NCBI GenBank assembly: GCA_038087875.1
Contig: CM075996.1
Location: 2,544,001 to 2,608,000 of the forward strand
Direction of reading: 5' to 3'
Length of the DNA stretch: 64,000 nt
DNA from: Malacoraja senta
Taxonomy: Eukaryota
Shown here: one piece after another, positions 2,154 through 64,000 of the stretch
Numbering within the stretch: position 1 is the stretch's first letter
Layout of the letters: each line of letters starts with the position of its first letter
Translations under genes and position numbers: made by a program
Notes under the pieces: model-generated
Databases searched by the model: none
What the model was told of the DNA's origin: nothing
The model's input: the letters and a program-made list of their open reading frames with translations, nothing else

Positions 2154-3354
2154 GTATGGTGGGGGAGTTTGTCAGCCCGAGCTAGAGTCGTCCAGCGTGG
2201 AAACTTCGCCCCAATTTGCCCAAGCCGACCAACATGCCCCATCTACACTTGTCCCACCTGTCTGCTTCTGGCCCAGATCCCACTAAACCTACCTTATCTA
2301 TGTACCTGTAAAGAAGTTGGGATAGTACCTGCCTCAACTACCTCCTCTGGAAGCTCGTTCCATACACCCACCTCCCTCAGTTTTCCCATTAAATCTCTTC
2401 CCCCCTCCCCCCCTCACCTTAAACCTATGTGCTCTGGTTCTTTATCCCTAGCTCTCTCACCTTCCTTTTCTGAGCCATTCTATGAGCTCCAACGACCATT
2501 CTGTAAACACACAAAGCCGCCTGTACAAGCTTAGGCTCAGAGGTTGTCCATTTGACAAGCCTGATATTCCCTCATTCACAGTCTGTTGGGGCATCGAGTG
2601 TAAGAGTCAGCAAGTCGTGATGCGGCTGTGTAAGACTTTTGGTTGAACACATACAACAACACAGCACAGGAACGGGCCCTTCGACCCACAATGTTTGTAC
2701 CAAACCTGATTTAACTCTACATCCCCTTCCCAGTTCTCCCACTAGTCTTACTGTCTCTGATTACATTCTATCTCTGTACCGCCCCCTCCCCTGACATCAG
2801 TCTGAAGAAGGGCCTCGACCCGAAACATCGGCCATTCCTTCTCTCCAGAGATGCTGCCTGACCCGCTGAGAAAGGGGCAAAGTTTTTAACACAGTCCTGG
2901 AAAGCTCTGAAGTACAGGTCAAGATGGATACAGTAGTGGCATTTACTGTTTTACTGTTCTTTTTTTATAAATCATGTTTCTCGGGGTATCTAAATTTTAG
3001 TTGTTTAAGTTATTACATCGGATGGAAGCTGCGTACCAAATCTCGTTGCACCTATGTGCAATGACAATAAAATATATTATTATTATTATTATTTGAGAGA
3101 CTTTTAGAAGAGACATGGATATGGAGGGATATGGATCACGTGCAGGCAGAGGGAATTGGTTTAATTTAGCAACGTGTTTGGCACAGACATTGTGGGCTGA
3201 GAGGCCTGTCCCTGTGCTGTGCTGTTCAATCATGGCAGGTGACGACCGGGCAAGTGACATCTTAGCTGAGACCACCGTCGCTGGTTGAAGCACTGACCTG
3301 TCCAGCATTTCATTTTACTTCTGCCAGAATCAGAGAAACATAATGTTGTTGCAG

Positions 3355-3473
3355 GAGTTCAGGGAGTACGGACAGTGAAGGAAGCAGAGACTCCGAAGAG
3401 GACGAAGATGAAGAAGGGGTACAGACTGCTATAAAGCCCACGGACTCCAGGATGGAAATAGACCCAAACAAAG
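3355..3473 (+). CDS. PPP6R3: PPP6R3-like coding exon B
   Basis: ttgcag| ... |gtacat, phase 2->1. Encodes SSGSTDSEGSRDSEEDEDEE...SRMEIDPNK (cf. SSGSTDSEESTDSEEED...KMEVD). Confidence 0.85.
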
Positions 3474-4112
3474 GTACATGAATAATGGGGCTTGTGGCCG
3501 ATTTACAATACATTACATTTTATACAATACGATTTACAATACAATACTTTTGCGCTGGTATTTTATTTCATTCATGTTTAAACTATAATGTTTTATTATT
3601 AATGTTTTATGTGTCATTCTTAATTGTTACTGTATATCGTGTTGTTACCTGCGAGCGGAGCACCAAGGCAAATTCCTTGTATGTGAACATACTTGGCCAA
3701 TAAACCATTTCATTCATCCATTCAATCATACTTTATTAGCCAAGTATGTTTTGCAACATACGAGGAATTTCATTTGCCAAGTCAGTCATACTAATAGAAA
3801 GCAACAGATCACCCAAAATACATTTGAACATAAACATCCACTACAGTGACTCCTCACTGTGATGGAAGGCGGAAAAAAAAGTTCAATCTCTTCCCTTTGT
3901 TCTCCCGCAGTCAGAGGTCTCGAGCCTTCCGTTGACGGGGCGATCTTACTCCCGTAGCCGGCGGTTGGGCCCACCGCGTCGGGGGGGGGGGGGGGGGATC
4001 TCAGCTCCCTCACGCCTGGTCAGGGCTGGTCAAACCTTCTGCGTCGCTGGAGCTCCCGACTTGGTCTCTCCCGAGACTGAGCCCTTGATGTTATACTGGA
4101 GCATGACATTGG

Positions 4113-4612
4113 CTATAGATACATAGAAAATAGGTGCAGGAGTAGGCCATTCGGCCCTTCGAGCCAGCACCACCATTCAATATGATCATGGCTGATCATC
4201 CAACTCAGTATCCTGTACCTGCCTTCTCCCCATATCCCCTGATCCCCTTTAGCCACAAGGGCCACATCTAACTCCCTCTTAAATATAGCCAATGAACTGG
4301 CCTCAACTACTTTCTGTGGCAGATAATTCCACAGATTCACCACTCTCTGTGTGAAAAATGTTTTTCTCATCTCGGTCCTAAAAGACATCCCCCTTATCCT
4401 TAAACTGTGACCCCGTGTTCTGGACTTCCCCAACATTGGAAATAATCTTCCTGCATCTAGCCTGTCCAACACCTTAAGAATTTTGTACGTTTCTATAAGA
4501 TCCCCCGTCAATCTTCTAAATTCCAGCGAGTACAAGCTGAGTCTATCCAGTCTTTCTTCATATGAAAGTCCTGCCATCCCAGGAATCAGTCTGGTGAACC
4601 TTCTCTGTACTC
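4113..4612 (-). mobile_element. CR1 3' fragment
   Basis: [25 protein letters not shown]...VVNLWN plus tail. Confidence 0.9.
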
Positions 4613-4957
4613 TGTTCTCTGTCATGGAACCAAGCTTGGGATATTCTAAAGATAGATACAACAAGCTGGAGTACCTCAGCAGCTCAGACTGCATCTCTGC
4701 AGAGAAGGAATAGCTGATGTTTCAGGTCGAAACCAAACATCCCCTATCCCTTTTCTCCAGAGATGCTGTCTGTCCCGTTGATTTGATCCAGCTTCTTGTG
4801 TCTACGGCTGAAACCAGCGTCTGGAGTTCCTTCCTACACTGGGAGTTCCTTCCTACACTGGGCACTGCTTATAATTCGGGGATTCCTATCTAATGTTACC
4901 AGTGTTACCAAATACCTATCTAATGTGTTACCAGTAACGTGTTGGTTTGATCTTCAG

Positions 4958-7098: not shown

Positions 7099-8035
7099 CT
7101 CTAATATTCCAAGGAATTAGCGATGTGCCTCAACTGGAGTTTTTCTTCCTTTCTGATTAAATTGAATTTTAAATTGGGTTACTCAAAGGTGAACGATTGA
7201 CACTGATTTATTTTTGTGCCTGAAGCCTATTTTTAGCAGCTTGAATAAAATGTACTATTTTTAAATGAGAATTTATTACCTAATTCAATGGTGCTTTCAT
7301 TGTCACGCGTGCAAACGCACAGTGAAATTCTTTTCCTACACACAGTCTTGTACAGTATTCCCATACATTAGCACATCCTTGATTAGCAAGTGTACAGAAA
7401 TAGTCCGCTGAGCCCGCGTGCAAGAGGCGCCATGTTATTGGGATTGATGTAACCAGAAGCTTGGAACTAACATACCTGTCAGTGGAAAAGGCCCCACCAT
7501 CCAGAACTTTGAGATGAATCACCATGTTCGTGTCCTTGTGTACTTCCTTATGGGCAGAGGCGTCACCTTGGACTATGAGTCCTTTGTGTGACTAATGCGT
7601 GATGCAAAACTACGACCAGGTGGATTGTGCTGACGAGTTCAGTAACTCCCCCTTTGCTGTTGCTCAATCAACCCGCAACTGACAGTTCCCTGGGTCGTAT
7701 CGTCAGAGGTTCAGACCCGGATGCTGAGTCATTTATTGGTTTGAAAGGGGAGTAGGAGGGTACTTGGAGCAGATGCAAAGCTCCGTCCATTCAGTATTGA
7801 AGCTGTGTGTTTACCTCCGGCAATGCTTGTTGCAAAAACAATGAACATTGGTAATCATTGCAAGGTCATTGAACCCACCTTTCCCCCTCCCCTCTGTCTG
7901 AAGAAGGGTCTCGAGCCGAAATGTCACCTCTTCCTTTACTCCAGAGATGCTGTCTGGCCCGCTGAGTTACTCCAGCTTTTTGTGTCCATTTGCACCTAGT
8001 ACCTGCCATTTTGTCCAGCCTCTCCTCTCTTCTAT

Positions 8036-17625: not shown

Positions 17626-18348
17626 TGCTGCCAATGTTAGAAGAAACTGTGTAAGAAATCGTTCTGGATTTATAAATTTGGCGATGTTTAGATATTTGCA
17701 CTGTTTTCGATTGCATTACAATCTTTTAGTTTAGGGCAATGTTAGGTCATTTTTTTTCAGATTAGGGTGGCACGGTGGCACAGTGGTGCTGTCTGTACAG
17801 AGTTTGCACATTCTTCCCGTGACCTGCGTGGGTTTTCTCCGGGTGCTCTAATATCCTCCCACACTCCAAGACGTACAGGTTTGTAGGTTAATTGGCTTCG
17901 ACCAAAACTGTAAATTGTCCCGAGTGGGTGTAGGGTGTAGGGTATAATTCTTACACATGATCCAAATAAAAATCACAAAACCACATGCCACATGTCCTAG
18001 TTCAGCTTCTGTAACCTTTGGAAATTCCCAGTATAAACAAAACTGGTCACAAAGGCCACAGCTGACAATGGCCTGTTTCCTTCAACAGCGTAACTTTTTT
18101 TGCATACTTTCATTTATTTGTCCTATATCTCTCTACACCTGTCTGTATCTCTTGTTTCCCTTTCCCCTGACACTCAATCTGAAGAAGGGTCTGGACCCGA
18201 AACGTCACCTATTCCTTTTCTCCAGAGATGCAGCCTGACCCAGGGAGTTAATCTAATTTTCTGTGTCTATCTTCGGTCAAAGTCTATCTATCACCACTCT
18301 TGGCTCTATGCACATGTACTGTTTTCACCGCATGACCCTGCCTTTTAG

Positions 18349-44117: not shown

Positions 44118-44252
44118 GCAATAACCGGAAGGTGATGCTGAACCTACTGTATAGTATAGGTGTTGAATGCTGTTACCCGCCTTCTGATTCCCCCACCTCG
44201 CCATCTAGACAGCCAGCAAGACCAGCCCCTGTGAGAGGCTACACTGGATTAG
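44118..44252 (+). CDS. PLA2G6: PLA2G6 exon 9 (proline-rich, phase-symmetric)
   Basis: ctcaaag| ... |gtaacc, 135 nt, phase 1-1. NNRKVMLNLLYSIGVECCYPPSDSPTSPSRQPARPAP (cf. human RKAILTLLRTVGAEYCFPP). Confidence 0.88.
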
Positions 44253-44303
44253 GTAACCCCGGCTATTGACTTCGTTCTGTTGCGACTTTCCTATTTGTCT
44301 TTA

Positions 44304-47003: not shown

Positions 47004-47094
47004 GATATGATGACGTTGTAGGGATTGCCACTGTGCTTGGGTCTTTAACCAAGGGCTTGGACTTTCCAGATGCTGTTGGCGACAGACATCGAAG
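47004..47094 (+). CDS. PLA2G6: PLA2G6 exon 10 (linker)
   Basis: ctttcag| ... |gtgaga, 91 nt. Phase 1->2 is what is needed to join exons 9 and 11. YDDVVGIATVLGSLTKGLDFPDAVGDRHR; low similarity to human. Confidence 0.8.
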
Positions 47095-47520
47095 GTGAGA
47101 AAGCAAAACATGCGTCGAATCAAACCCCACTGTTATAGAGTCATAGAGTCATAGAGTGATGCAGAAACAGGCCCTTCGGCCCAACTTGCCCACACCAACC
47201 AACATGCCCCAGCTACACTAGTCCCACCTGCCCGCGTTTGGCCCATATCCCTCCAAACCTGTCCTATCCAGGGACCTGTCTATCTGTTTCTTAAACGTTC
47301 CGGTAGTACCTGCCTCAACTACCTCCTCTGGCAGCTCGTTCCATACACCCGCCACCTACATGGATAGGACAGGTTTGGAGGGATATGGGCCAAACGCGGG
47401 CAGGTGGGACTAGCGTAGTTGGGACATGTTGGCCGGTGTGGGCAGGTTGGGCCGAAAGAAAGCATATAAAGTGTGATAACAAAGAACTGCAGATGCCGGC
47501 TTTATATGCCTAATAAATGC

Positions 47521-47914
47521 ACAGAGTGCTGGAGTAACTCAGCGGGACAGGCAGCATCTGTGGAGAACATGGATAGGTGACGTTTCACAGAGTGCTGGAG
47601 TAACTCAGCGGGACAGGCAGCATCTGTGGAGAACATGGATAGGTGACGTTTCACCGAGTGCTGGAGTAACTCAGCGGGTCAGGCAGCATCTGTGGAGAAC
47701 ATGGATAGGTGACGTTTCACAGAGTGCTGGAGTAACTCAGCGGGTCAGGCAGCATCTGTGGAGAACATGGATAGGTGACGTTTCACAGAGTGCTGGAGTA
47801 ACTCAGCGGGTCAGGCAGCATCTGTGGAGAACATGGACGGGACGTTTCACAGAGTGCTGGAGTAACTCAGCGGGTCAGGCAGCATCTGTGGAGAACATGG
47901 ACAGGGGACGTTTC
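47521..47914. repeat. Tandem array, 6 x ~66 bp, of Penelope-terminus sequence
   Basis: Units start at 47521, 47587, 47653, 47719, 47785 and 47849; each ends in gacgtttc. Confidence 0.95.
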
Positions 47915-48936
47915 AAGTCAGAACCTTTTTTTCAGTTTTTTTTTTGCATTTTCCCAAGGAAGGTGAATGGATTTCAAACTGGGCGGGGTGGGGGTTGTTG
48001 GAGCTGGAGCGATGGGGGTGATGGGGACACTGTATCACTCTGTGACTCTATAACTTTATGGCCCATTGTGTTGTAAAAGAAAACATTTACCCCTCAGGTT
48101 GGGATAGTCCCAGCCGCAACTACCTCCTCTGGCAGCTTGATCCATACACCCACCACCCTTTGTGTATAAAAAGTTACCCCTCAGATTCCTATTAAATCTT
48201 CTCCCCCTCACCTTAAACCTATGTCTTCTGATTCTCGATTACCCTACTCTGGGCAAAAGACTCCGGGCAAAAGACCCGATCTCCTCTCGTGATTAATGCT
48301 GATAAGTGATGCTTAATCAGCATGTCGGACACAAAGAGTAACTCAGCGGGTCAGGCAGCATCTCTGGAGAACATGGATAGGTGACGTCTCGGGTCGAGTC
48401 GGAAGAAAGGTCTCGACCCGAAACGTCACCTAACAATGTTCTCTCGAGATGTTGCTCACTTATTCCAACACATTGTGACCTATTTCAGTTTAGTTTAGTT
48501 TAGTTTAGAGATACAGTGCGGAAACAGGCCCTTCGGCCCACCGAGTCCACACCGACCAGCGCTCCCCGCGCACTAACACTATCCTACACACAAACACTAG
48601 GGACAATTTACATTTACACCAAGCCCATTATCCTACAAACCTGTACGTCTTTGGAGTGTGCGAGGAAACCGATGATCTCGGAGAAAACCCACGCAGGTCA
48701 CGGGGAGAACATGCAAACTCCGTACAGACAGCACCCGCAGTCAGGATCGAACCTGGTATTCTGGTGCTGGCTCGAAGGGCCGAATGGTCTACTCCTGCAC
48801 CTATTGTCTACTGTCTATAACCCGGGTCTCTGGCTCTGTGAGGCAGCAACTCTACCGCTGCATTGCCGTGCCTTGTGTAAACCAGCATCTGCTGTTCCTG
48901 GCTTCTACACTTAGTGGGGATTGTGTTTATTTCCAG

Positions 48937-49100
48937 ATACGATCGCTTGCTGTGCCTGGACGGAGGTGGGATCCGAGGTCTGGTCCTGATTCAGCTGCTG
49001 ATCGCCATTGAGCAGATGGCGGGGCAGCCCATTCGCGAGCTCTTCGACTGGGTATCAGGCACCAGCACTGGGGGGATTCTGGCTCTCGCTATTGTACACG
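48937..49100 (+). CDS. PLA2G6: PLA2G6 exon 11 (patatin domain; Gly loop and catalytic Ser)
   Basis: ttccag| ... |gtgagt, 164 nt. [11 protein letters not shown] and GTSTG motifs. Confidence 0.97.
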
Positions 49101-50252
49101 GTGAGTGACCTGTGGAACCCTGGCAGGGACAATTTCACAACTCACCGAAGCCAATTAACCGTCAAACCTGCACGTCTTTGGAGTGGGGGAGGAAACCGGG
49201 GCACCCGGAGAAAACCCACGCAGGTCACGGGGAGAATGTGCAAACTCCACACAGACAGCACCCGTAGTCTGGCTCGAACCTGGGTCTCTGGCGCTGTGAG
49301 GCAGCAACTCTACCGCTACGCCACCCGCACTCATAGTACATAGTCTGTGGAATTCTCTGCCTCTGAGGGCGGTGGAGGCAGGTTCTCTGGATGCTTTCAA
49401 GAGAGAGCTAGAATTTAGAATGCCATTTATTGTCATTTAACACCAAGGTTCAACGAAATTTCGTTCCTGCAGTCATAACAGCAAAAAAACAAACCACACA
49501 ATTAACACAATTCCACACAAACATCCATCACAGTGAATCTCCAAACACCTCCTCACTGTGATGGAAGGCAAAAGTCTTATTTCTTCCCTGTTCTCTGTTC
49601 TTTATTCTAGATAGGGCTCTTAAAAATAGCGGAGTCAGGGGATATGGGGAGAAGGCAGGAACGGGGTACTGATTGGGGATGATCAGCCATGATCACATTG
49701 AATGGCGGTGCTGGCTCGAAGGGCCAAATGGCCTACTCCTGCACCTATTGTCTATTGTCTCCTCATTAAAAAGAAGAGTCAGTTTAAGTTGTATTCACGC
49801 TGTCTATTTCCTAATCCTTTAGGCTTTATTTTGATTTTTTAATTTAAATAAATACTAATAATAAATGCAGTGTCAGCAGATTCCTAGCTTTAGGTTTAAG
49901 CTTATTATTATCAAGACGCTTCTTCAGACTGAGAGTCGGGGAGAGGGAGACACAGAGATGTGAAAATGAGACATCAAAAGAGATCTTCTTATTATCGAGT
50001 CCACACACAAGATTAGAAGTTGTTCAGCCAGAGCTGAACACAGTTCTCAGCATCTGCATACAATGGTGTCTGTCTTGTCGCTTCTTGTGCCTGGTGGTGG
50101 AAAGATTGGTGGAAACAAGGCCGCGACGTGAACGCCCTTTCCTTGACCCCATCAAAAGAGATGAGGTTCAAGGAAACTGTAAGCTAAACTAAGATTGCTT
50201 GCTGTTGTGATGTGGCTTTCATCGTGGAATAAACCTTTCCTCCCTCTTGTAG

Positions 50253-50403
50253 GAAAATCCATGCAATATTTGCGCTGTCTTTACTTCCGTATGAAAGACA
50301 AGGTCTTTAAAGGATCCAGACCATTCTCGTCCGTTCCACTCGAGGAGTTTTTAAAGAAGGAATTTGGGGAAAATACCAGGATGACGGATGTGTTAAAACC
50401 CAA
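50253..50403 (+). CDS. PLA2G6: PLA2G6 exon 12
   Basis: ttgtag| ... |gtaagt, 151 nt. [24 protein letters not shown]...[11 protein letters not shown]. Confidence 0.96.
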
Positions 50404-50636
50404 GTAAGTTAATAGATTTCTCTGTTGAGACGGTAAATAACCCTTGCTCTCTCTTTGTGGAAAAAGTGAACCGCAGATGCTGGTTTACGCTGAAGGACAC
50501 AGAGTGCTGGAGTAACTCAACGGGTCAGGCAGCTTCTCTGGAGAACATGGATAGGTGACGTTTCGGGGTCAGGATCCTGAAGAAGGACCCTCACTCTTCC
50601 ATTTCTCCAGAGATGCTGCCTAACCCGCTGAGTTAA

Positions 50637-50871
50637 TGGCCTGTCCCACTTGCACGACCTAATTCACGACATCTGCCGAGTTTGCCCTTGACTCGTACTC
50701 ACAGCATGCTCGTCACGAGGTCGTAGGAGGTCATAGGTAGGTCGTAGCAGGCCGTGATGCTAGTCGTAGGTACTCGTGGCATCAAGTAGGTCGGTGCGTT
50801 TTTTCAACATGATAAAAATTGTCCACGAGTAAAAAAGGTCGTGAATTAGGTCGTGAAAGTGGGACGGGCCC
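50637..50871. mobile_element. Related MITE with the same TIR tips and a different interior
   Basis: ggcctgtcccactt..cacgacctaattcacgac ... gtcgtgaattaggtcgtg..aagtgggacgggcc, flanked by ttaa. Confidence 0.8.
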
Positions 50872-52283
50872 TTAACTCATAACGTCAAAAGTGACTGGAG
50901 TAGAATTAGGCCATTCGGCCCATCAAGTCTACTCCGCCATTCAATCATGGCTGATCTATCTTTCCCTCCTAACCCCATTCTCCTGCCTTCTTCCCATAAC
51001 TCCTGACACCTGTACTTATCAATAATATATCTATCTCTGCCTTAAAATATCCACTGACTTGGCCGTCTGTGGCAAAGAATTCCACAGATTCAACACTCTC
51101 TGATTAAAGAAATTCCTCCTCATCTCCTTCCTAAAAGAACGTCCAGCAAACTACTCCAGCACTTTGTGTCAGACAATCTGACTAAGCATCACTTATCATC
51201 TGGCTCAACATTCATCGTGAAAGGAATATATCTAGTAAAACAGCACTTGAATATTTGAAACAGGATTATGAATATTGACTTCTCTAACTTCAAGTAGTCC
51301 TTGCTTTCCCTCCCTCTCCATCCCTCCCCCTTCCCAGTTCTCCGACCAGTCCTACTGTCCTCCTGATTACATTTTATCTCTGTTTGCTTTGTTGTTACCT
51401 TCTCCGATCTACTCTACATTTTCCTTGCCTTCATCTCTTTTGATGTCTTGTTCACACCTGACTCTCAGTCTGAAGAAGGGTCTCGACCCGAAACGTCACC
51501 CATTCCTTCTATCCAGAGATGCTGCCTGCCTGTCCCGCTGAGTTACTCCAGCATTTGTGTCTATTTTATTTACTTCGACACAAAAATCTCTTCTTCAGAC
51601 TCGATTATTTATTATTCTTCAGACTTATTTATTTACATGTTTGTTGGGGTGGGACGTTGCAACCTTCACGTGGTTCGCCCTGTTTCGACGAATGCAATCA
51701 ACCCGGCGTGCACAATCAAATAAGATCAAATAGAACAAGTTGTCCTACAACTTTAGGCTGTGCAAATGGACAAACAAGAACTTTTTGTTAAAATATGGGC
51801 TCCATTCATTAACTATTTGAAGGGATAGATGGGCCCAGCACGAAAACCCAACTGAAGCTTGAACTCAGGATCAGATGTAAAATTATATTTCATAACCTAC
51901 GAACTTATCTCCAATGACGTATTATAAGTAACTCATTCCACCTCTTTTTTTTGTGTGATATTTGTAATGCTTTTTCTTTCTACCTCTCTTTTTCTATCTA
52001 TATAAAAAAAAACACTAGAAGCAGAATTAATCGACAGTTGACAATTTTAATAATGTATGAGTGATTGATGTATATGAAAAGTTTTTTTTTCTATTATAAT
52101 ATGTTACTATACTTTATAATATGTTTGCTTCTAATAAAAATATTAATCAAAAAAACCCCAACTTATGCAAGAAGAAGACTTGTTTGTTCGTTTTTCCCTG
52201 CAGCCGTCAGGCCATTAAACACTATAACCTCCATTAACTTCTGAACTACATAGACAATTGCTGTTATTATTGCACTATTATTC

Positions 52284-52982
52284 TGTGTGTGCGCGGGTGT
52301 GTGTGCGCGGGTGTGTGTGCGCGGGTGTGTGCGCGGGTGTGTGCGTACGGGTGTGCGCGCGCGGGCGCGGGCGGGTGCGCGCGGGCGAGTGTGGGTGCGG
52401 GGGCGCACGTGCGGGTGTGCGGGTGCGTGCGCGGGTGTGTGCGCGTGTGTGCGGGACTTGTGTGGGTGCTCGTGTGGGTGCGCGGGACTTGTGTGCACGG
52501 GACTTGTGTATGCGTGTGTGTGCGTGTGTGTGTGCGTGTGTGTGTGTATGCGTGTGCGTGTGTGCGTGTGTGTGCGTGTGTGTGCGGGACTTGTGTGCGG
52601 GACTTGTGTGCGGGACTTGTGTGCGGGACTTGTGTGCGGGACTTGTGTGCGGGACTTGTGTGTGCGGGTGGGTGTGTGCGGGACATGTGTGTGCGGGACA
52701 TGTGTGTGCGGGACATGTGTGTGCGGGACATGTGTGTGCGGGACATGTGTGTGCGGGACATGTGTGTGCGGGACATGTGTGTGCGGGACATGTGTGTGCG
52801 GGACATGTGTGTGCGGGACATGTGTGTGCGGGACATGTGTGTGCGGGACATGTGTGTGCGGGACATGTGTGTGCGGGACTTGTGTGTGCGGGACTTGTGT
52901 GTGCGGGACTTGTGTGTGCGGGACTTGTGGGCGTGTGTGTGCGCGGGACTTGTGTGCGCGGGCGTGTGTATGTGTGTACACA
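52284..52982. repeat. TG/CG-rich minisatellite (13-bp gggacttgtgtgc and 15-bp gggacatgtgtgtgc units)
   Basis: Seen directly; lies within a Rex1-like 3' UTR upstream of exon 13. Confidence 0.95.
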
Positions 52983-53148
52983 CACTGGGCCTTTTCCTCG
53001 TTTATTATAGTGTTTACAGTGCACCATGTTTACATATTCTGTTGTGTGGCTGCAAGTAAGAATATCTTTGTTCCATCTGGGACACGTGTCAATGAAACAC
53101 TGGTGACTCTTGTCTCTGTGTGTTCCTTGCCTCTTCCACCACTGACAG

Positions 53149-53285
53149 GGTGATGGTGACCGGAACCCTGGCCGACCGGCATCCTGGAGAGCTTCACCTC
53201 TTCCGTAACTACGACCCTCCGGAGTTGAAGCACGACCCGCCCTTCATGCCCACTGCAGAGTTCCAGGCCTGCACCCAACCTAAAG
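53149..53285 (+). CDS. PLA2G6: PLA2G6 exon 13
   Basis: tgacag| ... |gtacgg, 137 nt. VMVTGTLADRHPGELHLFRNYDPP. Confidence 0.96.
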
Positions 53286-54027
53286 GTACGGCTCGAAGGG
53301 CCGAATGGCCTACTCCTGCACCTATTTTCTATGTTTCTATGGGCACCTGCTTCACTGCCTGTCTACATTTAATTTGCTGATCAAAAGAAGATTCTCTAAC
53401 CTCAAGTAACCCTTGCTTTCCCTCTCTCTCTCTCTCTCTCTCCATCCCTCCCCCTTCCCAGTCCTCCCACCAGTCTGACTGTTCCCCTTCTTCTTCTTCT
53501 TTTCGTGCCCATCTTGTTACAAATGTTGCCCTCGCTGTCATCGACCGTCCTGAAAAGGACGCAAGCTTCCGGCGACAATCAGTGGGGCCATCGCTTGTCG
53601 CAATAGTTGATGGTGGTAGCGGAATTAGCTCTAAATACTCTCAGTTTCCAGCCCCGCGACGTGGGCGCTTCTGCTATAGGGACACTGTTCCCCTGATTAC
53701 ATTTTATTATATTCTGTCTGAAGAAGGGTCTGAACCTGAAACGTCACCCATTCCTTCTCTCCAGAGATGCTGCATGTCCTGCTGAGTTACTCCAGCTTTC
53801 TGTGTCTATTTAACATTTTATCTCTGTTTGTTGTCGCCTTCTGTTTAATAATGATCTGTTTTATATTTTCCTTCAACCTCATCTCTTTTGATGTCTCGTT
53901 TACCCTTCCTTATCTCTGTGTCTCCCTCTCCACTGACTCTCAGTCTGAAGAAGGGTCTCGACCTGAAACGTCACCCATTCCTTCTCTCCTGAGATGCTGC
54001 CTGTCCCAGAGATCAAAGTTTTCAAAT

Positions 54028-54268
54028 GACAGCATTCATAGCAAAAAGATTTGAGTATAGGAGCAGGGAGGTTCTACTGCAGTTGTACAGGGTCTTGGTG
54101 AGACCACACCTGGAGTATTGCGTACAGTTTTGGCCTCCTAATCTGAGGAAGGACATTCCTGCCATGGAGGGAGTACAGAGAAGGTTCACCAGACTGATTC
54201 CTGGGATGTCAGGACATTGAAGAAAGACTGGATAGACTTGACTTGTACTCGCTAGAATTTTGAAGATT
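54028..54268 (+). mobile_element. CR1 fragment, 5' part of a + strand copy split by the minus-strand CR1
   Basis: [28 protein letters not shown]...; the consensus resumes at about 57437. Confidence 0.85.
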
Positions 54269-54269
54269 A

Positions 54270-57200
54270 GATACATAGATACATAGAAAATAGGTGCAGG
54301 AGTAGGCCATTCGGCCCTTCGAGCCTGCACCGCCATTCAATATGATCATGGCTGATCATCCAACTCAGTATCCCGTACCTGCCTTCTCTCCATACCCCCT
54401 GATCCCTTTAGCCACAAAGGCCACATCTAACTCCCTCTTAAATATAGCCAATGAACTGGCCTCAACTACCCTCTGTGGCAGAGAGTTCCAGAGATTCACC
54501 ACTCTCTGTGTGAAAAATGTTCTTCTCATCTCGGTCTTCAAGGATTTCCCCCTTATCCTTAAGCTGTGACCCCTTGTCCTGGACTTCCCCAACATCGGGA
54601 ACAATCTCCCTGCATCTAGCCTGACCAACCCCATAAGAATTTTGTAAGTTTCTATAAGATCCCCTCTCAATCTCCTAAATTCTAGCGAGTATAAGCCGAG
54701 TCTATCCAGTCTTTCTTCATATGAAAGTCCTGACATCCCAGGAATCAGTCTGGTGAACCTTCTCTGCACTCCCTCTATGGCAATAATGTCCTTCCTCAGA
54801 TTTGGAGACCAAAACTATATGCAATACTCCAGATATGGTCTCACCAAGACCCTGTACATCTGCAGTAGAACCTCCCTGCTCCTATACTTAAATCCTTTTG
54901 CTATGAAAGCTAACATACCATTCGCTTTCTTCACTGCCTGCTGCACCTGCATGCCTACTTTCAATGACTGGTGTACCATGACACTCAGGTCTCGCTGCAT
55001 CTCCCCTTTTCCTAATCGGCCACCATTTAGATAAGTCTGCTTTCCTGTTTTTGTCACCAAAGTGGATAACCTCACATTTATCCACATTATACTGCATCTG
55101 CCAAACATTTGCCCACTCACCCAGCCTATCCAAGTCACCTTGCAGTCTCCTAGCATCCTCCTCACAGCTAACACTGCCCCCCAGCTTCGTGTCATCTGCA
55201 AACTTGGAGATGTTGCATTCGATTCCCTCATCCAGATCATTAATATATATTGTAAATAGCTGGGGTCCCAGCACTGAGCCTTGCGGTACCCCACTAGTCA
55301 CTGCCTGCCATTGTGAAAAGGACCCGTTTACTCCTATTCTTTGCTTCCTGTTTGCCAGCCAGTTCTCTATCCACATCAATACTGAACCCCCAATACTGTG
55401 TGCTTTAAGTTTGTATACTAATCTCTTATGTGGGACCTTGTCAAAAGCCTTCTGAAAGTCCAGATACAACACATCCACTGGTTCTCCCCTATCCACTCTA
55501 CTAGTTACATCCTCGAAAAATTCTATAAGATTCGTCAGACATGATTTACTTTCGTAAATTCATGCTGACTTTGTCCAATGATTTCACCACTTCCAAATGT
55601 GCTGCTATCCCATCTTTAATAACTGACTCTAGCAGTTTCCCCACTACCGATGTTAGACTAACTGGTCTGTAATTCCCCGTTTTCTCTCTCCCTCCCTTCT
55701 TAAAAAGTGGGGTTACGTTTGCTACCCGCCAATCCTCAGGAACTACTCCAGAATCTAAAGAGTTTTGAAAAATGATCACTAATGCATCCACTATTTCTGG
55801 AGCTACTTCCTTAAGTACTCTGGGATGCAGCCTATCTGGCCCTGGTGATTTATCGGCCTTTAATCCATTCAATTACCCAACACCAGTTCCCCGACTAACC
55901 TGGATTTCACTCAGTTCCTCCATCTCCTCAGTCCCCTGCTATTTCCGGCAGATTATTTATGTCTTCCTTAGTGAAGACGGAACCAAAGTAGTTATTCAAT
56001 TGGTCCACCTTGTTCCCCATGATCAATTCACCTGTTTCTGACTGCAAGGGACCTACATTTGTTTTAACTAATCTCTTTCTCTTCACATATCTATAAAAAC
56101 TTTTGCAGTCAGTTTTTATGTTCCCTGCCAGTTTTCTTTCATAATCTATTTTCCCTTTCCTAATTAAGCCCTTTGTCCTCCTCTGCTGGTCTCTGAATTT
56201 CTCCCAGTCCTCTGGTATGCTGCTTTTTCTGGCTAATTTGTACGCATCATCTTTTGCTTTGATACTATCCCTGATTTCCCTTGTTATCCACGGATGCACT
56301 ACCTTGCCTGATTTATTCTTTTGCCAAACTGGGATGAACAATTTTTGTATTTCATCCATGCAGTCTTTAAATGCCTTCCATTGCATATCCACCGTCAACC
56401 CTTTTAGAACTAATTGCCAGTCAATCTTGGCCAATTCACGTCTCATACCCTCAAAGTTACCTTTCTTTAAGTTCAGAACTGTTGTTTCTGAATTAACAAT
56501 GTCACTCTCCATCCTAATGAAGAACTCAACCATATTATGGTCACTCTTGCCCAAGGGGCCACGCACAACAAGACTGCTAACTAACCCTTCCTCATTACTC
56601 AATACCCAGTCTAGAATAGCCTGCTCTCTCGTTGGTTCCTCTACATGTTGGTTTAGATAACTATCCCGCATAAATTCCAAGAAATCCTCTTCTTCAGCAC
56701 CCCTGCCAATTTGATTCACCCAATCTATATGTAGATTGAAGTCACCCATTATAACTGTTTTGCCTTTGTTGCACGCATTTCTAATTTCCTGTTTGATGCC
56801 ATCCCCAACTTCACTACTACTGTTAGGTGGCCTGTACACAACACCCACCAGCGTTTTCTGCCCCTTAGTGTTTCGCAGCTCTAACCCATACCGATTCCAC
56901 ATCCTCCAAGCTAATGTCCTTCCTTTCCACTGCGTTAATCTCTCTAACCAGCAACGCTACCCCACCTCCTTTTCCTTTCTCTCTATCCCTCCTGAATATT
57001 GAATATCCCTGGATGTTCAGCTCCCAGCCTTGGTCACCCTGGAGCCATGTCTCCGTGATCCCAACTATATCATAATCATTAATAGCTATCTGCACGTTCA
57101 ACTCATCCACCTTATTACGAATGCTCCTTGCATTGACACACAAAGCCTTCAGGCTTGTTTTTACAACGCTCTTACCCCTTTTACAATTATGTTGAAAAGT

Positions 57201-57420
57201 GGCCCTTTTTGATTTTTGCCCTGGATTTGTCTGCCTGCCACTTTTACTTTTCACCTTGCTACCTATTGCTTCCGCCCCCATTTTACACCCCTCTGTTTCT
57301 CTGCTCACCCATTTAAGAACCCCACCACCTCTTATTCTCTGTTTATTATTGTTTTCTTCTTTCCCCCCTACATGTTGGGTCTGAGTGCTTCCCTTCTCAG
57401 CCTCTGCCTCACACACTGTC
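54270..57420 (-). mobile_element. CR1-clade LINE, near-complete ORF2 (APE endonuclease + RT) split by several frameshifts
   Basis: Successive minus ORFs contain [64 protein letters not shown]. The 3' UTR ends in an 8-bp repeat tail near 54270-54290. Confidence 0.95.
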
Positions 57421-57436
57421 TAAAAGCTTTCTCTAT

Positions 57437-57832
57437 GATTGAGGGGGGATCTTATAGAACTTACAAAATTCTTAAGGGGTTGGACAGGCTAGATGCAGGA
57501 AGATTGTTCCCGATGTTGGGGAAGTCCAGAACAAGGGGTCACAGTTTAAGGATAAGGGGGAAATCTTTTAGGACCGAGATGAGAAAAAACATTTTTCACA
57601 CAGAGAGTGGTGAATCTGTGGAATTCTCTGCCACAGAAGGTACTTGAGGCCAGTTCATTGGCTATATTTAAGAGGGAGTTAGATGTGGCTAAAGGTATCA
57701 GGGGGTATGGAGAAAAGGCAGGTACAGGATACTGAGTTGGATGATCAGCCATGATCATATTGAATGGCGGTGCAGGCTCGAAGGGCCGAATGGCCTACTC
57801 CTGCACCTATTTTCTATGTTTCTATGTTTCTA
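57437..57832 (+). mobile_element. CR1 3' end (continuation of 54028-54268)
   Basis: YKILKGLDRLDAGRLFPMLGKSRTRGH followed by the 3' UTR and (ttctatgt)n tail. Confidence 0.9.
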
Positions 57833-57833
57833 T

Positions 57834-57869
<36 letters not shown>

Positions 57870-60515
57870 AATTCATATTTCAGTTGTGTTTCAAAGTTGT
57901 GTTTAGGCAGAATATCATTTCGCAATGGAAAGATAAACACCGAAACTTAGTTTAGTTTGCTTAATATTATGTCTCGTGTACTGAGGTACAGTGAAAAGCT
58001 TTAGTTGCTTGCTAACCAGTCATCGGAAAGACTGTACTTAGAGCCACCTCATGTAAAAAAAAAAGAGTTAAAAAAAATATATAGTTATATGCTGTTTATG
58101 GAGTTTGTACTTTTTCCCTGGGAATGCGTGGGTTTTCTCCAGATGCTCTGGTTTCTTCCTACACTCCAAAGACATACAGGTTTATAGGCTAATTGCCTTC
58201 AGTAAAATTGTAAATTGTCCCTAGTGTGTGTAGGATAGTATTAGTGTATGAGTCGGTGAAGGGCCTGTTTCCACGCTGTATCTCTAAAGTCTATAGATTA
58301 AGTTTAGTTTAGAGATAGTGCGGAAACAGGCCCTTCGGCCCACCGAGTTCGTGCCGACCAGAGATCCCTGCACATTAACATTATCCTACACACACCAGGG
58401 ACAATTTACATTTGCACCAAGCCAATTAACCTACAAACCCGTACGTCTTTGGAGTGCGGGGTGGAAACCGAAGATCTCGGAGAAAACCCACGCAGATCAC
58501 TGGGAGAACGTACAAACTCCGTACGGGACAGCACCCGCAGTCGGGATGGAACCCGGGTCTCTGACGCTGTGAGGCAGCAACTCTACCGCAGCGCCACCGT
58601 GCCGGCTTCTATTCTACCATAAACAGTGGCAAAAGCCGGCGGGCTTCCCAGATGCTGGAATATTGTTCCCTGAGCTTCAACAATTAAAATTGCGGTCAGT
58701 GCCACAGATAGTTTTTTTTAACGTATGAAGAAAAATATAGTGTGCGTGTGGTTTATTTTTAAATGCACAAACCCAGATGTAAGACTGTCTAAGAATGTGT
58801 GCTGCAATGGAGATGGAATTTCCTTCGGCTTTGGCTTAGGAATGTACAACATGTTGGAAATGTTGTCAGCAGAAATATCCAAGACTGACTCTTTTCTTAT
58901 TGATTTTATAAGACAAGAGACAAAGTTTAAAGGAGACACATGCACAGTGAATAGTCGGTGTCTTGACCAAGGTGCCAGGGTGGTGGTGGTGGAGACAGAC
59001 AGGATAGTTGCATTTAAGAGCCTCTTAGATAGGCACATGGACATGCATAGAATGGACAAGGCACAAACTCCGTACAGACACCACCTGTAGTCAGGATCGA
59101 TCCAGGGTCTCTGGCGATGTAGCGATACGATAGAACTTTATTTATCCCAGGAGGGAAATTGGTCTGCCAACAGTCAAAAAACACAAATATATGAAACATG
59201 AAATTAAAGTGACAATAGACAATAGGTGCAGGAGTAGGCCATTCGGCCCTTCGAGCCAGCACCGCCGTTCAATGTGATCATGGCTGATCATCCCCAATCA
59301 GTACCCCGTTCCTGCCTTCTCCCCATATCCCCTGACTCCGCTATTTTTAAAAGCCCTATCTAGCTCTCTCTTGAAAGCATCCTGAGAACCCGCCTCCACC
59401 GCCCTCTGAGGCAGAGAATTCCACAGACTCACCACTCTCTGTGAGAAAAGTGTTTCCTCGTCTCCGTTCTAAATGGCTTCGAGGATGTGTGGAAAGGATT
59501 GGGGACGTGCAAAGATTGGGGATGGAGGCGGGAGGGGGGGGGGGGGGTTGGGCAGGTGGGCTGGGGGTGGCGTTAGATCCAGGTCTGATCCTGACTTCGG
59601 GCGCTGTCTGTACGGAGTTTGCACGTTCTCCCTGTGACCACACTGTGGGGTTTTCTCCGGTTGCTCCGGTTTCCTCCCAAATCCCAAAGACGTGCGGGTT
59701 TGAAGGTTAATCGGCCCTCTGTAAATTGCCCCCAGTGTGTCGGGAGTGGGGGTGAAAGGGGCGCCCCAACCTGTCGGTGAAAGGTTGGAGACTTTAGAAT
59801 GAGTAAGTTTATAAACTTAGAGAGGCGTATAAGATCATGAGAGGATTAGATCGGGTAGATGCACAGTCTCTTGCCCAGTGTAGGTGAATCGAGGACCAGA
59901 GGACATAGGTTTAAGGTGAAGGGGAAAAGATTTAATAGGAATCTGAGGGGTAACTTTTTCACACAGAGGGTGGTGGGTGTATGGAATGAGCTGCCAGAGG
60001 AGGTAGTTGAGGCTGGGACTATCCCAATGTTTAAGAAACAGTTAGACAGGTCCATGGATAGGACAGTTTGGAGGGATATGGCCCAAGCGCGGGCAGGTGG
60101 GACTAGTGTTGCTGGGACAATAGACGATAGGTGCAGGAGTAGGCCATTCGGCCCTTCGAGCCAGCACCGCCATTCACTGTGATCATGGCTGATCATCCAC
60201 AATCAGTACCCCGTTCCTGCCTTCTCTCCATATCCTCTGACTCCTCTATCTTTAAGAGCTCGATCTAACTCTCTCTTGAAAATGGACATGTTGTCCGGTG
60301 TGGGCAAGTTGGGCTGGAGGGCCACGCTGTATCATTCTATGACTCTCTCTAAACGTCTCTTTGATACCACGATAGACACAAAAAGCTGGAGTAACTCAGC
60401 GGGACAGGCAGCTTGTCTGGAGAGAAGGAATAGGTGACGTTTCGGGTGGAGACCCTTCTTCACACTGATGTTGGATGTGATTTGAAGCCTTTGTCGTTGT
60501 CTTTCTTCCAAACAG

Positions 60516-60670
60516 ACCAGCTGGTTTGGCGAGCTGCCCGTTGTAGTGGCGCAGCCCCGACGTACTTCCGACCCATGGGCAGATTTCTGGATGGGGGGCT
60601 TCTCGCAAATAACCCAACACTGGATGCAATGACTGAAATACACGAGTACAATCTGAACCTGAAGAGAAAG
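60516..60670 (+). CDS. PLA2G6: PLA2G6 exon 14 (catalytic Asp, DGG); later exons not visible in window
   Basis: aaacag| ... |gtatac, 155 nt. [45 protein letters not shown]. Confidence 0.97.
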
Positions 60671-61029
60671 GTATACATCATGCTTGTCGTCTCATTTAGC
60701 TTTTAATTCCCTTCTGCTAAAGCCGCTGTCTCAAAGCGCCGGCTTTGATCCTTTTGGTTCTGCTTGTTGTCACGTGTACCGAGGTACAGTGAAAAGCTTT
60801 TGTTTGCAACCCCCACAATTAAAATGTGGATTACGGAAATGTCTGAGACCTTACACTTGGAAAAAATTAGACTTGTTTTAATTGACAAATCAGAACTATT
60901 TGCTAGAATATGGTCTCCATTTATTTATTTTCTAAAGAGATAAATTGGTTCACATTTTAATTGTGGGGGTTGCAAACAAAAGCTTTTCAACTGTACCTTG
61001 GTTCAACACGGAAGCTGGACAAACTTGAA

Positions 61030-61497
61030 TCCAGGGATGGCAGGACTTTCATATGAAGAAAGACTGGATAGACTCGGCCTGACTCGCTGGAATTTTGAAG
61101 ATTGAGGGGGGGATCTTATAGAAACGTACAAAATTCTTAAGGGGTTGGACAGGCTAGATGCAGGAAGATTGTTCCCGATGTTGGGGAAGTCCAGGACAAG
61201 GGGTCACAGTTTAAGGATAAGGGGGAAGTCTTTTAGGACCGAGATGAGAAAAACATTTTTCACACAGAGAGTGGTGAATCTGTGGAATTCCCTGCCACAG
61301 AAGGTAGTTGAGGCCAGTTCATTGGCTATATTTAAGAGGGAGTTAGATGTGGCTAAAGGGATCAGTGGGTATGGAGAGAAGGCAGGTACGGGATACTGAG
61401 TTGGATGATCAGCCATGATCATATTGAATGGCGGTGCAGGCTCGAAGGGCCGAATGGCCTACTCCTGCACCTATTGTCTATGTTTCTATGTTTCTAG
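61030..61497 (+). mobile_element. CR1 3' fragment
   Basis: ORF 61145-61399 plus tail; shares the 'agatgtggctaaagg' deletion variant with 57437-57832. Confidence 0.88.
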
Positions 61498-61811
61498 GAC
61501 TGGATGAATAATTACACCTTATAATCTACGGACCTATCTCCAAAACCGTGTTATTGGTAATCACCTCTGTATTTACCCTTCCCTCTCTATTAGTTTATAG
61601 TTTTTTCCCTCTTATTTCTTTCTTTCTCTATAGCTCTATCTTTCAAAAAAATTTAATAAAAAATAGAAGCTTTGTATGTATGTAATTGGTAAACAAATTG
61701 TGTTTTGCTATTATATGTATATGCTTCTAATAAAAATATTTTTAAAAAAATGCTTTTGTTGCGTGCTAACCAGTCAGCAGATAGACTATGCAATAGTCAG
61801 TCAGCAGATAG

Positions 61812-62011
61812 NNNNNNNNNNNNNNNNNNNNNNNNNNNNNNNNNNNNNNNNNNNNNNNNNNNNNNNNNNNNNNNNNNNNNNNNNNNNNNNNNNNNNNNNN
61901 NNNNNNNNNNNNNNNNNNNNNNNNNNNNNNNNNNNNNNNNNNNNNNNNNNNNNNNNNNNNNNNNNNNNNNNNNNNNNNNNNNNNNNNNNNNNNNNNNNNN
62001 NNNNNNNNNNN
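61812..62011. other. Assembly gap (200 N)
   Basis: Run of N. Confidence 1.
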
Positions 62012-62368
62012 GTCCCACCATCCCGGAATTAAGGTCGTGAACCTACGTTGCACTCCCTCAATAGCAAGAGTGTCCTTCCTCAATTTAGGAGACCAAAACT
62101 GCACACAATACTCCAGGTGTAGTCTCACCAGGTCCCTGTACAGCTGCAGATGGACCGCTTTGCTCCTATACTCAAATCCTCTCATTATGAAGGCCAACAT
62201 GCCATTCGCATTCTTCACTGCCTGCTGTCCCTGCATGCTTACTTTCATTGACTGATAGGACACCCAGGTCTCGTTGTACTTCCCCTTTTCCTAATCTGAC
62301 ACCATTCAGATAACAATCTGCCATCTTGTTCTTGCCTCCAAAGTGGATAACCCCACATTTATCCACAT
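62012..62368 (-). mobile_element. CR1 RT fragment next to a gap
   Basis: [16 protein letters not shown]...[10 protein letters not shown]. Confidence 0.85.
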
Positions 62369-64000
62369 GGTGTAGGCAGCCAGTGAAAGGCAGTTGAAGA
62401 TAAACATTTGTTTAACTACACGTTCGGTTGTGCTTCCCCACACAGGCAGCCCATTCCACGATGAAGAAGGTGAGAGGGGTTTGAAGTATTGGATACATGG
62501 ATAGGAAAGGATGAGAGAGAGAGGCAGAGGGATAAGAGTCAAGCATGGGCAAGTGAAACTAGCTTCAATGGGGCTAGTCAGTGTGGATGAGTTGGGCCGA
62601 AGGGTCTGTTTTCATGCTGCACGACTGTGACAAGACATTTGCCTGGGGTAGTGGTTCGGTACAGAGGATGCAACAACATGACTTAGACTCACCTTCTGTG
62701 GGTTTGCTAGCAGCAAGACCTGTGTAATTGCGGAAGGTGGAACGATAGGATTGAATGCTGGCAGCTCGGTGCCAGAGGGAGGCTGTAGTTTCACCTTCAT
62801 GACCTGAAACACAGCAATTGAGAATATTTCTTGTGTAGGGAGGAACTGCAGATGCTGGTGGAAACCAAAGACAGGCACAAAAAGCTGGAGCAACTCAGCG
62901 GGTCACGCTGCATCTCAGGAGAGAAGGAACAGGTGACGTTTCGGGTCTGAAGAAGGGTCTCGACCCGAAAACGTCACCTATTCCTTCGCTCCATAGATGC
63001 TGCCTCACCCGCTGAGTTTCTCCAGCATTTTTGTCTACTAACGTTATTGAATCAGTCTTAAGAATATTTCTTATTTCCCTGCACAAGAAACTCAGCGGGC
63101 AGAGAATTCTCCAGCTGAGTTTCTCCAGCATTTGTGTACCTTCGATTTTCCAGCATCTGCAGTTCCTTCTTTAACACAACTATTTATATCCCCCACTGGT
63201 TCTCCTACCACCCACCTAAACTGGGAGCAATTTAGATTAACCAAAGTGGATAACCCCACATTTATCCACATGGTGTAGGCAGCCAGTTAATCTATCGGCA
63301 GCTCAGTGGTACTGCTGCTGCATCACCGTGCCAGAGACCCGGGTCAGATCCTGACCCCAGCTGCTGTGTGTGTGGTTTGCATGTTCTCCCTGTGTGTGAC
63401 CGCGTGGTTTTCCTCTGGTTTCCTGCCACATCCCAAAGTTGTGCAGGTTTGTAGGTTAATAATTGGCCCTCTGTAAAACTGAAGAGAGGGAGAATGTGCA
63501 AACTTCACACGGACAGCACCCGAGGTCAGGATCGAATCCGGGTCTCTGGCGCCGTGAGGCAGCAGCTCCACCCGCTGCGCCACAGTGATGCCGCTTCTCC
63601 TGTGGGATAATCCACAAGGGAACTTGGGAGAAGTGTTAACGAGCTGCTATTTTGGCTGAAATAACTCGTACAATGATTCAACAATGTCAAATAATAAAAC
63701 CTGCTCCAGATTCAGGGACAGTTTCTTCCCAGCTGTTGTCAGGCAACTGAACCATCCTACCACAACCAGAGAGCAGTGCTGAACTACTATCTACCTCTTT
63801 GGAGACCCTCTGACTATGTTTGATCGGAATTTACTGGACTTGCACTAAACCCAATTCACATTATTCCCTTTATCATGTATCTATACACTGTGGACGGCTC
63901 GACTGTAATCATGCATTGATTTCTGCTGACTGGATAGCATGCAAAAGCTTTTCACTGTACCTCGGTACACATGACAATAAACTAAACTCAAATGTATATT

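Follow-up and report, generated by a model that had tools for sequence, protein, structure and literature searches.

Hammerhead-like motifs of a Penelope-like retrotransposon family in and around the PLA2G6 gene of Malacoraja senta

A stretch of 64,000 nucleotides from Malacoraja senta (GenBank assembly GCA_038087875.1, contig CM075996.1, positions 2,544,001 to 2,608,000 of the forward strand), hereafter called the window, contains many copies of a short motif resembling the hammerhead ribozyme, inserted in both orientations, and this raises the question of whether the copies located in introns are able to cut the pre-mRNA of their host gene, as a first-pass annotation had proposed. The motifs probably represent the minimal type I hammerhead of an EN+ Penelope-like retrotransposon family, which has spread as short terminal fragments now decaying neutrally and likely not cutting host pre-mRNA.

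The motif, its copies and the parent element

The motif was found on the expected strand at all of the 17 positions previously cited, the copy assigned to 62946 having its C3 at 62947, although the list was incomplete, since the window yields 57 BLAST matches or 55 profile matches (28 plus and 27 minus). The window motifs display the core order CUGANGA - helix II - GAAA - NUH in a type I topology, with a palindromic ACGU helix III devoid of loop III in all intact copies. Helix II, formerly drawn as 5 bp with a 2-nt loop, actually consists of 4 bp closed by a 4-nt loop (GGGU-CUCG-ACCC or GGGU-UUCG-GCCC); the 10.1/11.1 pair is G-C in 261 and G.U in 48 of 362 copies. Helix I is short, in most copies 2 bp beyond which A.C and C.Y mismatches set in, and an unpaired A stands between positions 9 and 10.1 (94% of aligned copies); both features had already been noted. 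An Rfam scan of the window (E up to 1) gave 25 matches, none of them to a hammerhead family.

Depending on the copy, the motif (given here from C3 to H17) is more or less well preserved. The fully intact plus-strand copy at 51470..51497 is preceded by a pyrimidine tract and TCAGT, and the core is similarly intact at 18179..18206 (plus; helix I of 1 bp), at 24248..24275 (minus; a short solo copy beginning at AGT) and at 39853..39880 (plus; U.G pairs in helix II and helix I), where the predicted cut site follows GUU instead of the anticipated GUC. Another GUU copy, from the young subfamily, occurs at 37241..37268 (minus) and was absent from the earlier list. Other copies once considered intact or nearly so are altered, with A replacing G10.1 at 38305 and a G10.1.U11.1 wobble in the plus-strand copies at 53718..53745 and 53945..53972. 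Degenerate plus-strand motifs are located at 2802..2829 (G16.2 to A), 7898..7925 (C15.2 to T and a helix II mismatch) and 33231..33258 (GAAAC..GUC altered). On the minus strand, the copies at 41673..41700 (G10.1 to A, GUU triplet) and 60436..60463 (C3 to G, core broken) carry changes.

Eleven head-to-head pairs, most of them carrying the tail on one arm, take up 22 of the 55 profile matches and are predicted to fold into long hairpins. Each pair corresponds to a single insertion with its inverted partner, e.g., 35098/35125 in the insertion 35002..35222 (predicted hairpin of -89.5 kcal/mol; minus C3 at 35123 with G16.2 lost, plus C3 at 35125 with an intact core), the pair 42216..42447 cited as 42304 (minus C3 at 42331, intact core; degenerate plus copy at 42350), 46433..46638 (plus C3 at 46517, core intact, predicted to be sequestered in a -53.9 kcal/mol hairpin) and 62841..63047 (plus C3 at 62947, extra A in GAAA). 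Both CUGAUGA copies sit in such predicted hairpins with inverted partners; an origin of this variant by fold-back is unsupported, T at N7 occurring in 2/95 fold-back, 5/125 short and 1/76 long copies. In the window, copies occur either alone and dispersed or as head-to-head pairs; its only tandem array, at 47527-47930, lacks CUGANGA. A separate short repeat at 53488-53683 begins with a CPEB3/HDV-like ribozyme and may merit its own study.

The host gene is a PLA2G6/iPLA2-beta orthologue on the plus strand, extending from about 27.7 kb to beyond 60.7 kb (27652..60706), whose first and last exons match PDB 6aun (E 7e-20 and 1e-25) and whose assignment is supported by Pfam ankyrin (exon 36426-36755) and patatin matches. 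The motifs had been attributed to two pre-mRNAs; PLA2G6 accounts for one, whereas 54 unique-region open reading frames and three others upstream gave no convincing Pfam match and no Atlas match.

Two plus-strand fragments connect the motif to its parent element. The first, at 38010..38398, is the 3' end of an older subfamily (74% identical to positions 6874-7280 of L032, a full-length natural copy) and comprises an endonuclease tail, a pyrimidine-rich 3' UTR and the motif at 38305. The second, at 38943..39946, belongs to the young subfamily (97.6-97.8% identical to L032), is split by another repeat at about 39172-39332, and comprises the CX4CX2C linker, GIY-YIG, the 3' UTR and the motif at 39853. 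The GIY-YIG remnant reported ahead of both motifs is thus confirmed for 39853 (39302-39706; Pfam PF01541, E 8e-5), the sequence before 38305 being the endonuclease tail of another subfamily. In L032, motifs at 3315 and 7187 flank a single 1,200-aa open reading frame with RVT_1 (RT), a Zn-finger-like linker CNRKRCNTC and, at the C terminus, a GIY-YIG endonuclease, and the element forms a partial tandem (1,732 bp, 99%). Some 160 nt separate C3 from the first ATG downstream, and in many subfamilies the motif lies about 130-260 nt past the end of the endonuclease, behind 3' UTRs that vary in length and sequence. Changes between subfamilies spare the core and preserve base pairing: U-A becomes U.G at 10.4/11.4 and 2.1/1.1, and the other changes are H17 C to U and loop CUCG to UUCG.

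Among divergent relatives, a sense motif was found 241-692 nt downstream at 9 of 48 loci (antisense 0; shuffles 0/9,600), the strict descriptor giving no match in the other 39. In all nine, helix I measures 3-5 bp and the extra nucleotide is present, although the descriptor demands neither, and the palindromic 15.2/16.2 is CG, GC or UA. Covariation over six sequences, including four relatives picked for equal spacing, amounts to 12 two-sided changes with 92.9% paired (shuffles 0/500). Judged from these sequences, divergent relatives retain the core as well as the two helices, the invariance of the core columns being partly by construction. The identification as a minimal type I hammerhead located at Penelope termini, its helix III formed by a palindromic ACGU, therefore holds, on the evidence of L032, the relatives, the covariation and the minimal hammerheads (min-HHRs) reported by Cervera and de la Pena (2014, PMC4209133).

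One exact 30-mer of the motif occurs 14,357 times in the 1.94-Gb genome, and the locus is accordingly not special; its supposedly remarkable density lies between the extremes seen in 17 other gene spans (1.6-13.3 matches per 10 kb). A 1.51-Mb sample contains 422 anchors (up to 8 mismatches), the reversed pattern being absent from both sample and genome, which puts the motif well outside what chance would give, and of 107 descriptor matches in the sample 102 belong to the family and 5 to its indel variants, leaving no second, unrelated hammerhead family there.

Where the copies begin and end

Among 716 copies, 466 begin at -8..+24, within the motif or just 5' of it, with a peak at an initiator-like TCAGT, and only 7 start (+26..+30) and 2 end (+25..+29) around the cut site. 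Two groups of 3' ends are located about 84-101 and 117-123 nt past C3, which places the cut site inside the copied stretch. Because 5' extents taken from BLAST reach too far, by 8 nt in the median, base-by-base frequencies and exact counts were used, and profile-based hazards upstream of -16 were set aside because subfamily divergence inflates them. In 125 short copies, the element-derived share falls from 0.63 at -3 to 0.31 at -4. Genome-wide, 1,828 of the 7,878 AGT-led exact copies lack C at -4, and the rest keep T at -5 in 4,716 of 6,050 cases (0.78), the same as long copies. Assembled contigs from four runs, aligned to L032, show presence and loose ends only; the same three positions recur as loose contig ends in the runs from three related organisms.

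Selection would act only on rare master elements. In these, folding of the motif would require either a dimer or help from the protein that the element encodes, such help being shown for PAc, the hammerhead-bearing Poseidon element of Anolis carolinensis (Frangione et al. 2024, PMC11167929). Copying by reverse transcriptase would begin in the tail stem-loop, with uncleaved RNA as template, and in most cases halt at the motif, producing solo copies of 90-125 bp or, through fold-back at the palindromic TCAG-T-CTGA and GTC/GAC stretches, head-to-head pairs; the density and the occurrence in both orientations would thereby be explained.

A more speculative proposal, to which we give rather little weight, is that the element RNA has its 5' end at the A of TCAGT, three bases ahead of the core, so that the hundreds of thousands of 90-125-bp solos would be complete run-off cDNAs reaching from the tail stem-loop as far as that 5' end (strong-stop-like) and the 30-nt hammerhead would be a terminal repeat common to the 5' end and the ribozyme-cut 3' end, for template jumping. 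Equally good accounts of the 5'-end data are stalling at helix II and termination driven by microhomology. If the proposal were true, the genome would offer a natural high-depth map of the reverse-transcription cycle of Penelope-like elements (PLEs). The pile-up at the 5' edge of the motif and its absence at the cut site constrain PLE transcription and copying.

Decay, predicted folding and the competing explanations

The earlier suggestion, in which sense copies with intact cores pair up through ACGU, inside a single host transcript or in trans, and cleave introns often enough to matter biologically, gains some plausibility from the six intact-core sense copies within the PLA2G6 span, from the motifs at 53718 and 53945 lying only 227 nt apart, from the very many potential partners in the genome and from the low cleavage of minimal PLE hammerheads as dimers (PMC4209133). 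However, the depletion of sense copies that was to be checked is not apparent in introns, with intact cores numbering 53 sense against 51 antisense (95% interval 0.41-0.61, over 17 gene spans inferred from Pfam exon matches, one of them of 230 kb from two such matches), or 36 against 34 without fold-back copies, and all copies 267 against 286. The core of scattered copies erodes at the neutral rate: across 362 spanning copies, change at non-CpG positions amounts to 6.2% in the core and 7.1% in the tail, and G12, lost in 26%, decays like any CpG (17-24% at the other CpG positions). Predicted folding is unfavourable, in terms of nearest-neighbour energies that leave out tertiary contacts and proteins. 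The pair probability of helix I is at most 0.03 at 18 of 18 sites, the dimer fold of six copies lies 17.7-27.6 kcal/mol above the free fold, against 8.5-19.1 kcal/mol in the nine relatives, the closest natural tandem pair (53718/53945) reaches 29.8 kcal/mol with a helix III probability of at most 1e-4, and two of the six PLA2G6 sense copies are predicted to be locked in hairpins. Slow intronic cleavage could be tolerated without strand depletion. With some 50 intact sense cores spread over 1.37 Mb of gene spans and no depletion, the answer on host-intron cleavage is negative, and cleavage at a relevant rate is in our view very improbable.

A better, though still unlikely, candidate is a vestigial hammerhead which, with a helix I of 2 bp, would no longer cut even in master elements and would be retained for a role as promoter or protein-binding site, made up of the initiator-like TCAGT and a downstream element. 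The 2-bp helix I with mismatches in most copies, compared to 3-5 bp in the nine relatives, the predicted competing fold in which GAAGAAGGGU pairs with the sequence past the cut, and insertion ends lacking a cleavage footprint all point this way, as does a tail which, across subfamilies within the genome, is as invariant as the core. Owing to this equality, local conservation alone is no proof of ribozyme function. Against a vestigial state stand the subfamily changes that respect core and pairing, the 2-bp helix I of the D. virilis Penelope (PMC4209133) and PAc, which cuts only with its protein. A further proposal, improbable in our view, holds that the pyrimidine tract and CAG before UCUGA form a 3' splice site, splicing supplying a new 5' strand for helix I as proposed for the D. 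virilis Penelope, in which an intron ends at helix I (PMC4209133). All long copies inspected have a long pyrimidine tract and YAG, and several subfamilies carry a donor-like CAG|GTAG that overlaps their ORF stop. The predicted spliced junction, however, has no copy in the sample or genome-wide (PLEs retain introns, though), the young intact subfamily lacks the CAG|GTAG donor, none of the joints listed (15 of 166) is GT..AG into this AG, and the divergent relatives lack the acceptor context. Decaying terminal fragments of a PLE family with a minimal hammerhead thus remain the preferred reading.

Relation to known hammerhead-bearing elements

The literature search returned nothing on Penelope hammerheads in skates, Penelope in elasmobranch repeat landscapes or chondrichthyan hammerheads, nor, within the excerpted sources, a description of a PLE 5'-end pile-up at the motif. 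Dimers are treated by Lunse et al. (RNA Biol), as cited in PMC6765202.

Non-LTR retrozymes, which the preprint of Li et al. (2026, 10.64898/2026.07.22.740005) reports in one chondrichthyan, are likewise short non-coding PLE-derived units with a type I hammerhead, but they form tandem arrays with a complete ribozyme per unit. The window copies, unlike retrozymes, are dispersed or head-to-head, and the 47527-47930 array is without CUGANGA.

With respect to the Neptune/Nematis-clade PLEs (Craig et al. 2021, PMC8557442), the likeness includes the C-terminal GIY-YIG, a Zn-finger-like linker (CX2-5CxxC) that separates RT from endonuclease, partial tandems, an inverted 5'-truncated partner and a tail at one end, the clade assignment resting on the linker motif only, which is common to both clades. 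The same authors regard the function of PLE hammerheads as an open question.

In PAc, cleavage does not occur without protein, insertion does not need cleavage, RT starts 111-118 nt into the ORF and the ORF begins at stem II (PMC11167929). Similarly, insertions end here at their 3' side about 90-125 nt downstream of the motif, and two 3'-end clusters define a 30-40-nt tail, with no ends accumulating at the cut site. Unlike PAc, the first ATG is not at stem II, and the protein has a CX4CX2C linker of the Neptune/Nematis type.

The closest resemblance is to the min-HHRs in the pLTRs of metazoan PLEs (PMC4209133), with which the motifs share the type I topology, the CUGANGA/GAAA core, G10.1-C11.1, the palindromic 15.2-16.2 without loop III, both repeats flanking an RT + GIY-YIG ORF, and mostly solo copies, some of them nearby on opposite strands; the extra A corresponds to the published unpaired nucleotide between 9 and 10.1. 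In contrast to the usual min-HHR, with its helix I of 4-5 bp, helix II has 4 bp and helix I only 2 bp, resembling the D. virilis exception. The 14,357 exact 30-mers exceed the 4,000 copies of coelacanth and the 9,000 of Xenopus, search methods being different, and the min-HHR class of 2014 is thereby extended to a very high-copy family.

Scattered copies in the window and in host genes

The Penelope-terminal hammerhead motif is present, on the strand given, at all 17 positions cited by the first-pass annotation, and the window contains 57 matches by BLAST with one copy as query. A profile derived from 11 natural copies finds 55 (28 plus, 27 minus), i.e., 8.6 matches per 10 kb. An exact 30-mer occurs 14,357 times (7,100 + 7,257) in the 1.94-Gb genome, where the exact count of the reversed pattern is zero. 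Among 17 other gene spans, inferred and oriented via Pfam exon matches (one from only two such matches), 578 matches in 1,369 kb give a mean of 4.2 per 10 kb with a range of 1.6-13.3, and the window is thus denser than the mean, yet inside the range. A retrozyme array was ruled out within the window: the tandem array at 47527-47930 (minus), made of six 66-nt units of the tail of the Penelope-like element (PLE) from GAAACGUC onward, is devoid of CUGANGA.

With respect to the two pre-mRNAs initially proposed to harbor these copies, one host gene is a PLA2G6 orthologue on the plus strand. Probable exons of an upstream gene, together with a GC-rich island before PLA2G6, lie at 6410-10815 and 19891-20443 and gave no identification in Pfam or Atlas. 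At G000:C1:154.69-155.08 Mb, exons of LDL-receptor class A form a large array, in which several duplications on the 50-kb scale are identical; it may correspond to a tandem gene expansion or an assembly duplication.

The idea that dimerising sense copies cleave host introns finds no support in decay, strand ratio or predicted folding, and on these three lines the genomic copies are likely not to act. Among 362 copies that extend over both motif and tail, divergence is 6.2% at non-CpG positions of the core, versus 7.1% at tail positions selected for being invariant across subfamilies. G12, C15.2 and G16.2, each of them in a CpG, diverge in 26%, 22% and 24% of copies, and the remaining CpG positions in 17-22%. 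The gene spans hold 267 sense and 286 antisense copies (553 matches), and a depletion of intact sense cores is not observed (53 sense versus 51 antisense in the 17 spans; p 0.92, interval 0.41-0.61), nor after removal of the fold-back copies, head-to-head pairs with an inverted partner (36 and 34). Slow intronic cuts may be tolerated despite this even ratio. According to folding energies that leave out tertiary contacts and proteins, adopting the predicted hammerhead dimer would cost six copies 17.7-27.6 kcal/mol relative to the free fold, versus 8.5-19.1 for nine relatives; helix I has a predicted pair probability of at most 0.03 at all 18 sites examined in two contexts, helix III of the natural pair 53718/53945 at most 1e-4, and predicted hairpins hold the copies at 35125 (-89.5 kcal/mol) and 46517 (-53.9 kcal/mol).

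Neighbouring repeats

A SINE-like insert of 196 bp, which has a target-site duplication of 10 bp and carries a (GAA)n tail, occurs at 53488-53683 (minus) and at five other sampled loci (L272-L276); an HDV/CPEB3-like ribozyme is predicted to cut at its first base. On the Rfam CPEB3_ribozyme model, with its cut-off of 35 bits, the window copy reaches 27.4 and all five other tested copies 37.5-41.8; a 34-mer of the insert has 179 exact copies, and all 40 candidates scored, out of 1,921 first-look candidates, match. The papers listed by a literature search are reviews or deal with trypanosomatid and R2 examples, and this repeat deserves its own study for its closeness to the CPEB3 ribozyme of mammals. 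At 53390-54003, this repeat and a short solo copy (53713-53811) apparently split a PLE 3' UTR that terminates in the motif at 53945. A long LINE remnant with RVT_1 (E 3e-23), probably of CR1/L2 type, occupies 54365-57419 (minus), and numerous short 3' pieces of that kind are spread across the window. The ORF fragment 24876-25477 (plus), without a Pfam match, presumably resembles the C-terminus of an RTE-type LINE, and RTE elements are candidate partners of the HDV-ribozyme repeat.

Parent element and ends of its copies

Long natural PLE copies were reached via a genome search with the GIY-YIG ORF remnant 39302-39706 of the window. In the full-length copy L032, one open frame of 1,200 codons encodes RT, GIY-YIG and a CX4CX2C linker; the motif is found at 3315 and again at 7187, and a partial tandem of 1,732 bp lies upstream. 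This is the standard layout of an endonuclease-positive (EN+) element. Such a linker between RT and endonuclease is a Neptune or Nematis feature in the available text of PMC8557442, and would place the element in one of these clades. The best named relative of the protein is found in a shark, Chiloscyllium (68%), which suggests a cartilaginous fish as the host. Many subfamilies in the 1.51 Mb of sampled DNA carry the motif after the end of the endonuclease; their 3' UTRs vary in length and sequence but all finish with (T)CAGT before CUGA.

Counted from C3, 300 of the 716 profile matches have their 3' end at +84..+101 and another 250 at +117..+123, where +123 is the last position of the profile. 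These clusters agree with the tail and the pair of reverse-transcription starts that were mapped for PAc, the Poseidon element of Anolis carolinensis, whose ribozyme requires the element's own protein for cutting and is not needed for insertion in vitro (PMC11167929). Since only 7/716 copies start, and 2/716 end, close to the cut site, no trace of cleaved RNA is visible among copy ends. An inverted partner lies directly upstream in 95 of 343 anchored copies (both arms of some pairs being counted), and 11 head-to-head pairs account for 22 of the 55 window matches; PLEs are already known to self-prime at palindromic junctions (PMC3846280). Two near-identical PLE copies of ~2 kb with long open frames, head to head at L036:2555-6841 (another sampled locus), show the fold-back structure on a larger scale.

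At the other extremity, 466/716 copies have 5' ends at -8..+24, and 215 of the 404 reaching that far end at -8..-1, versus 0.002-0.009 per base upstream of -30. The mode is the A of TCAGT (base frequencies in 125 short copies: 0.63 reach -3, 0.31 reach -4), in agreement with exact genome-wide counts of 13,276 cores, 7,878 with AGT, of which 1,828 without C, and 4,716 with TCAGT; loose contig ends fall at the same three positions in three related organisms (18, 11 and 8 contigs). TCAGT before the core fits the initiator consensus. Internal promoters and Inr-like sequences are known from PLE pLTRs (PMC2377424 and PMC3846280). A transcription start at this A is one, rather unlikely, reading. The same pile-up could reflect stalling of the RT or microhomology at the palindrome. 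The AG before CUGA might also be read as a splice acceptor, a quite improbable explanation: no spliced copy was found in the sample or genome-wide.

Hammerhead identity

An independent test relied on 80 metagenome loci encoding PLE relatives, 56 of which reach the endonuclease end, 48 of these with at least 350 nt downstream. A strict descriptor finds the sense motif downstream of the endonuclease in 9/48, no match in the other 39, no antisense motif in any of the 48, and none in 9,600 shuffles. All nine possess the extra nucleotide and a helix I of 3-5 bp, neither of which the descriptor required. Four equal-spacing relatives aligned with two window copies, an alignment in which core invariance is partly by construction, show 12 two-sided changes, with 92.9% of cells paired (0/500 shuffles). 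The hammerhead fold is thus conserved across PLE lineages. Equal conservation of core and adjacent sequence, earlier named as an argument against a ribozyme, is found within the skate genome, where the tail is just as invariant as the core across subfamilies, but not across lineages. The subfamily variants common to genome copies concern loop II, H17 (C/U) and two U-A to U.G changes, none in the core.

PLE-derived hammerhead repeats are already reported from one chondrichthyan in the available text of a 2026 preprint (10.64898/2026.07.22.740005), and literature searches, at the level of the papers themselves, found none on this lineage. The minimal form defined by Cervera and de la Pena, in the available text of PMC4209133, comprises a nucleotide between 9 and 10.1, a G10.1-C11.1 pair and a palindromic 15.2/16.2, is inactive as a monomer with low activity as a dimer, and has a 2-bp helix I in D. 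virilis. In its sequence the skate motif has exactly this form, and it belongs to the class on every sequence feature tested except helix I, which represents the short extreme of PLE minimal hammerheads.
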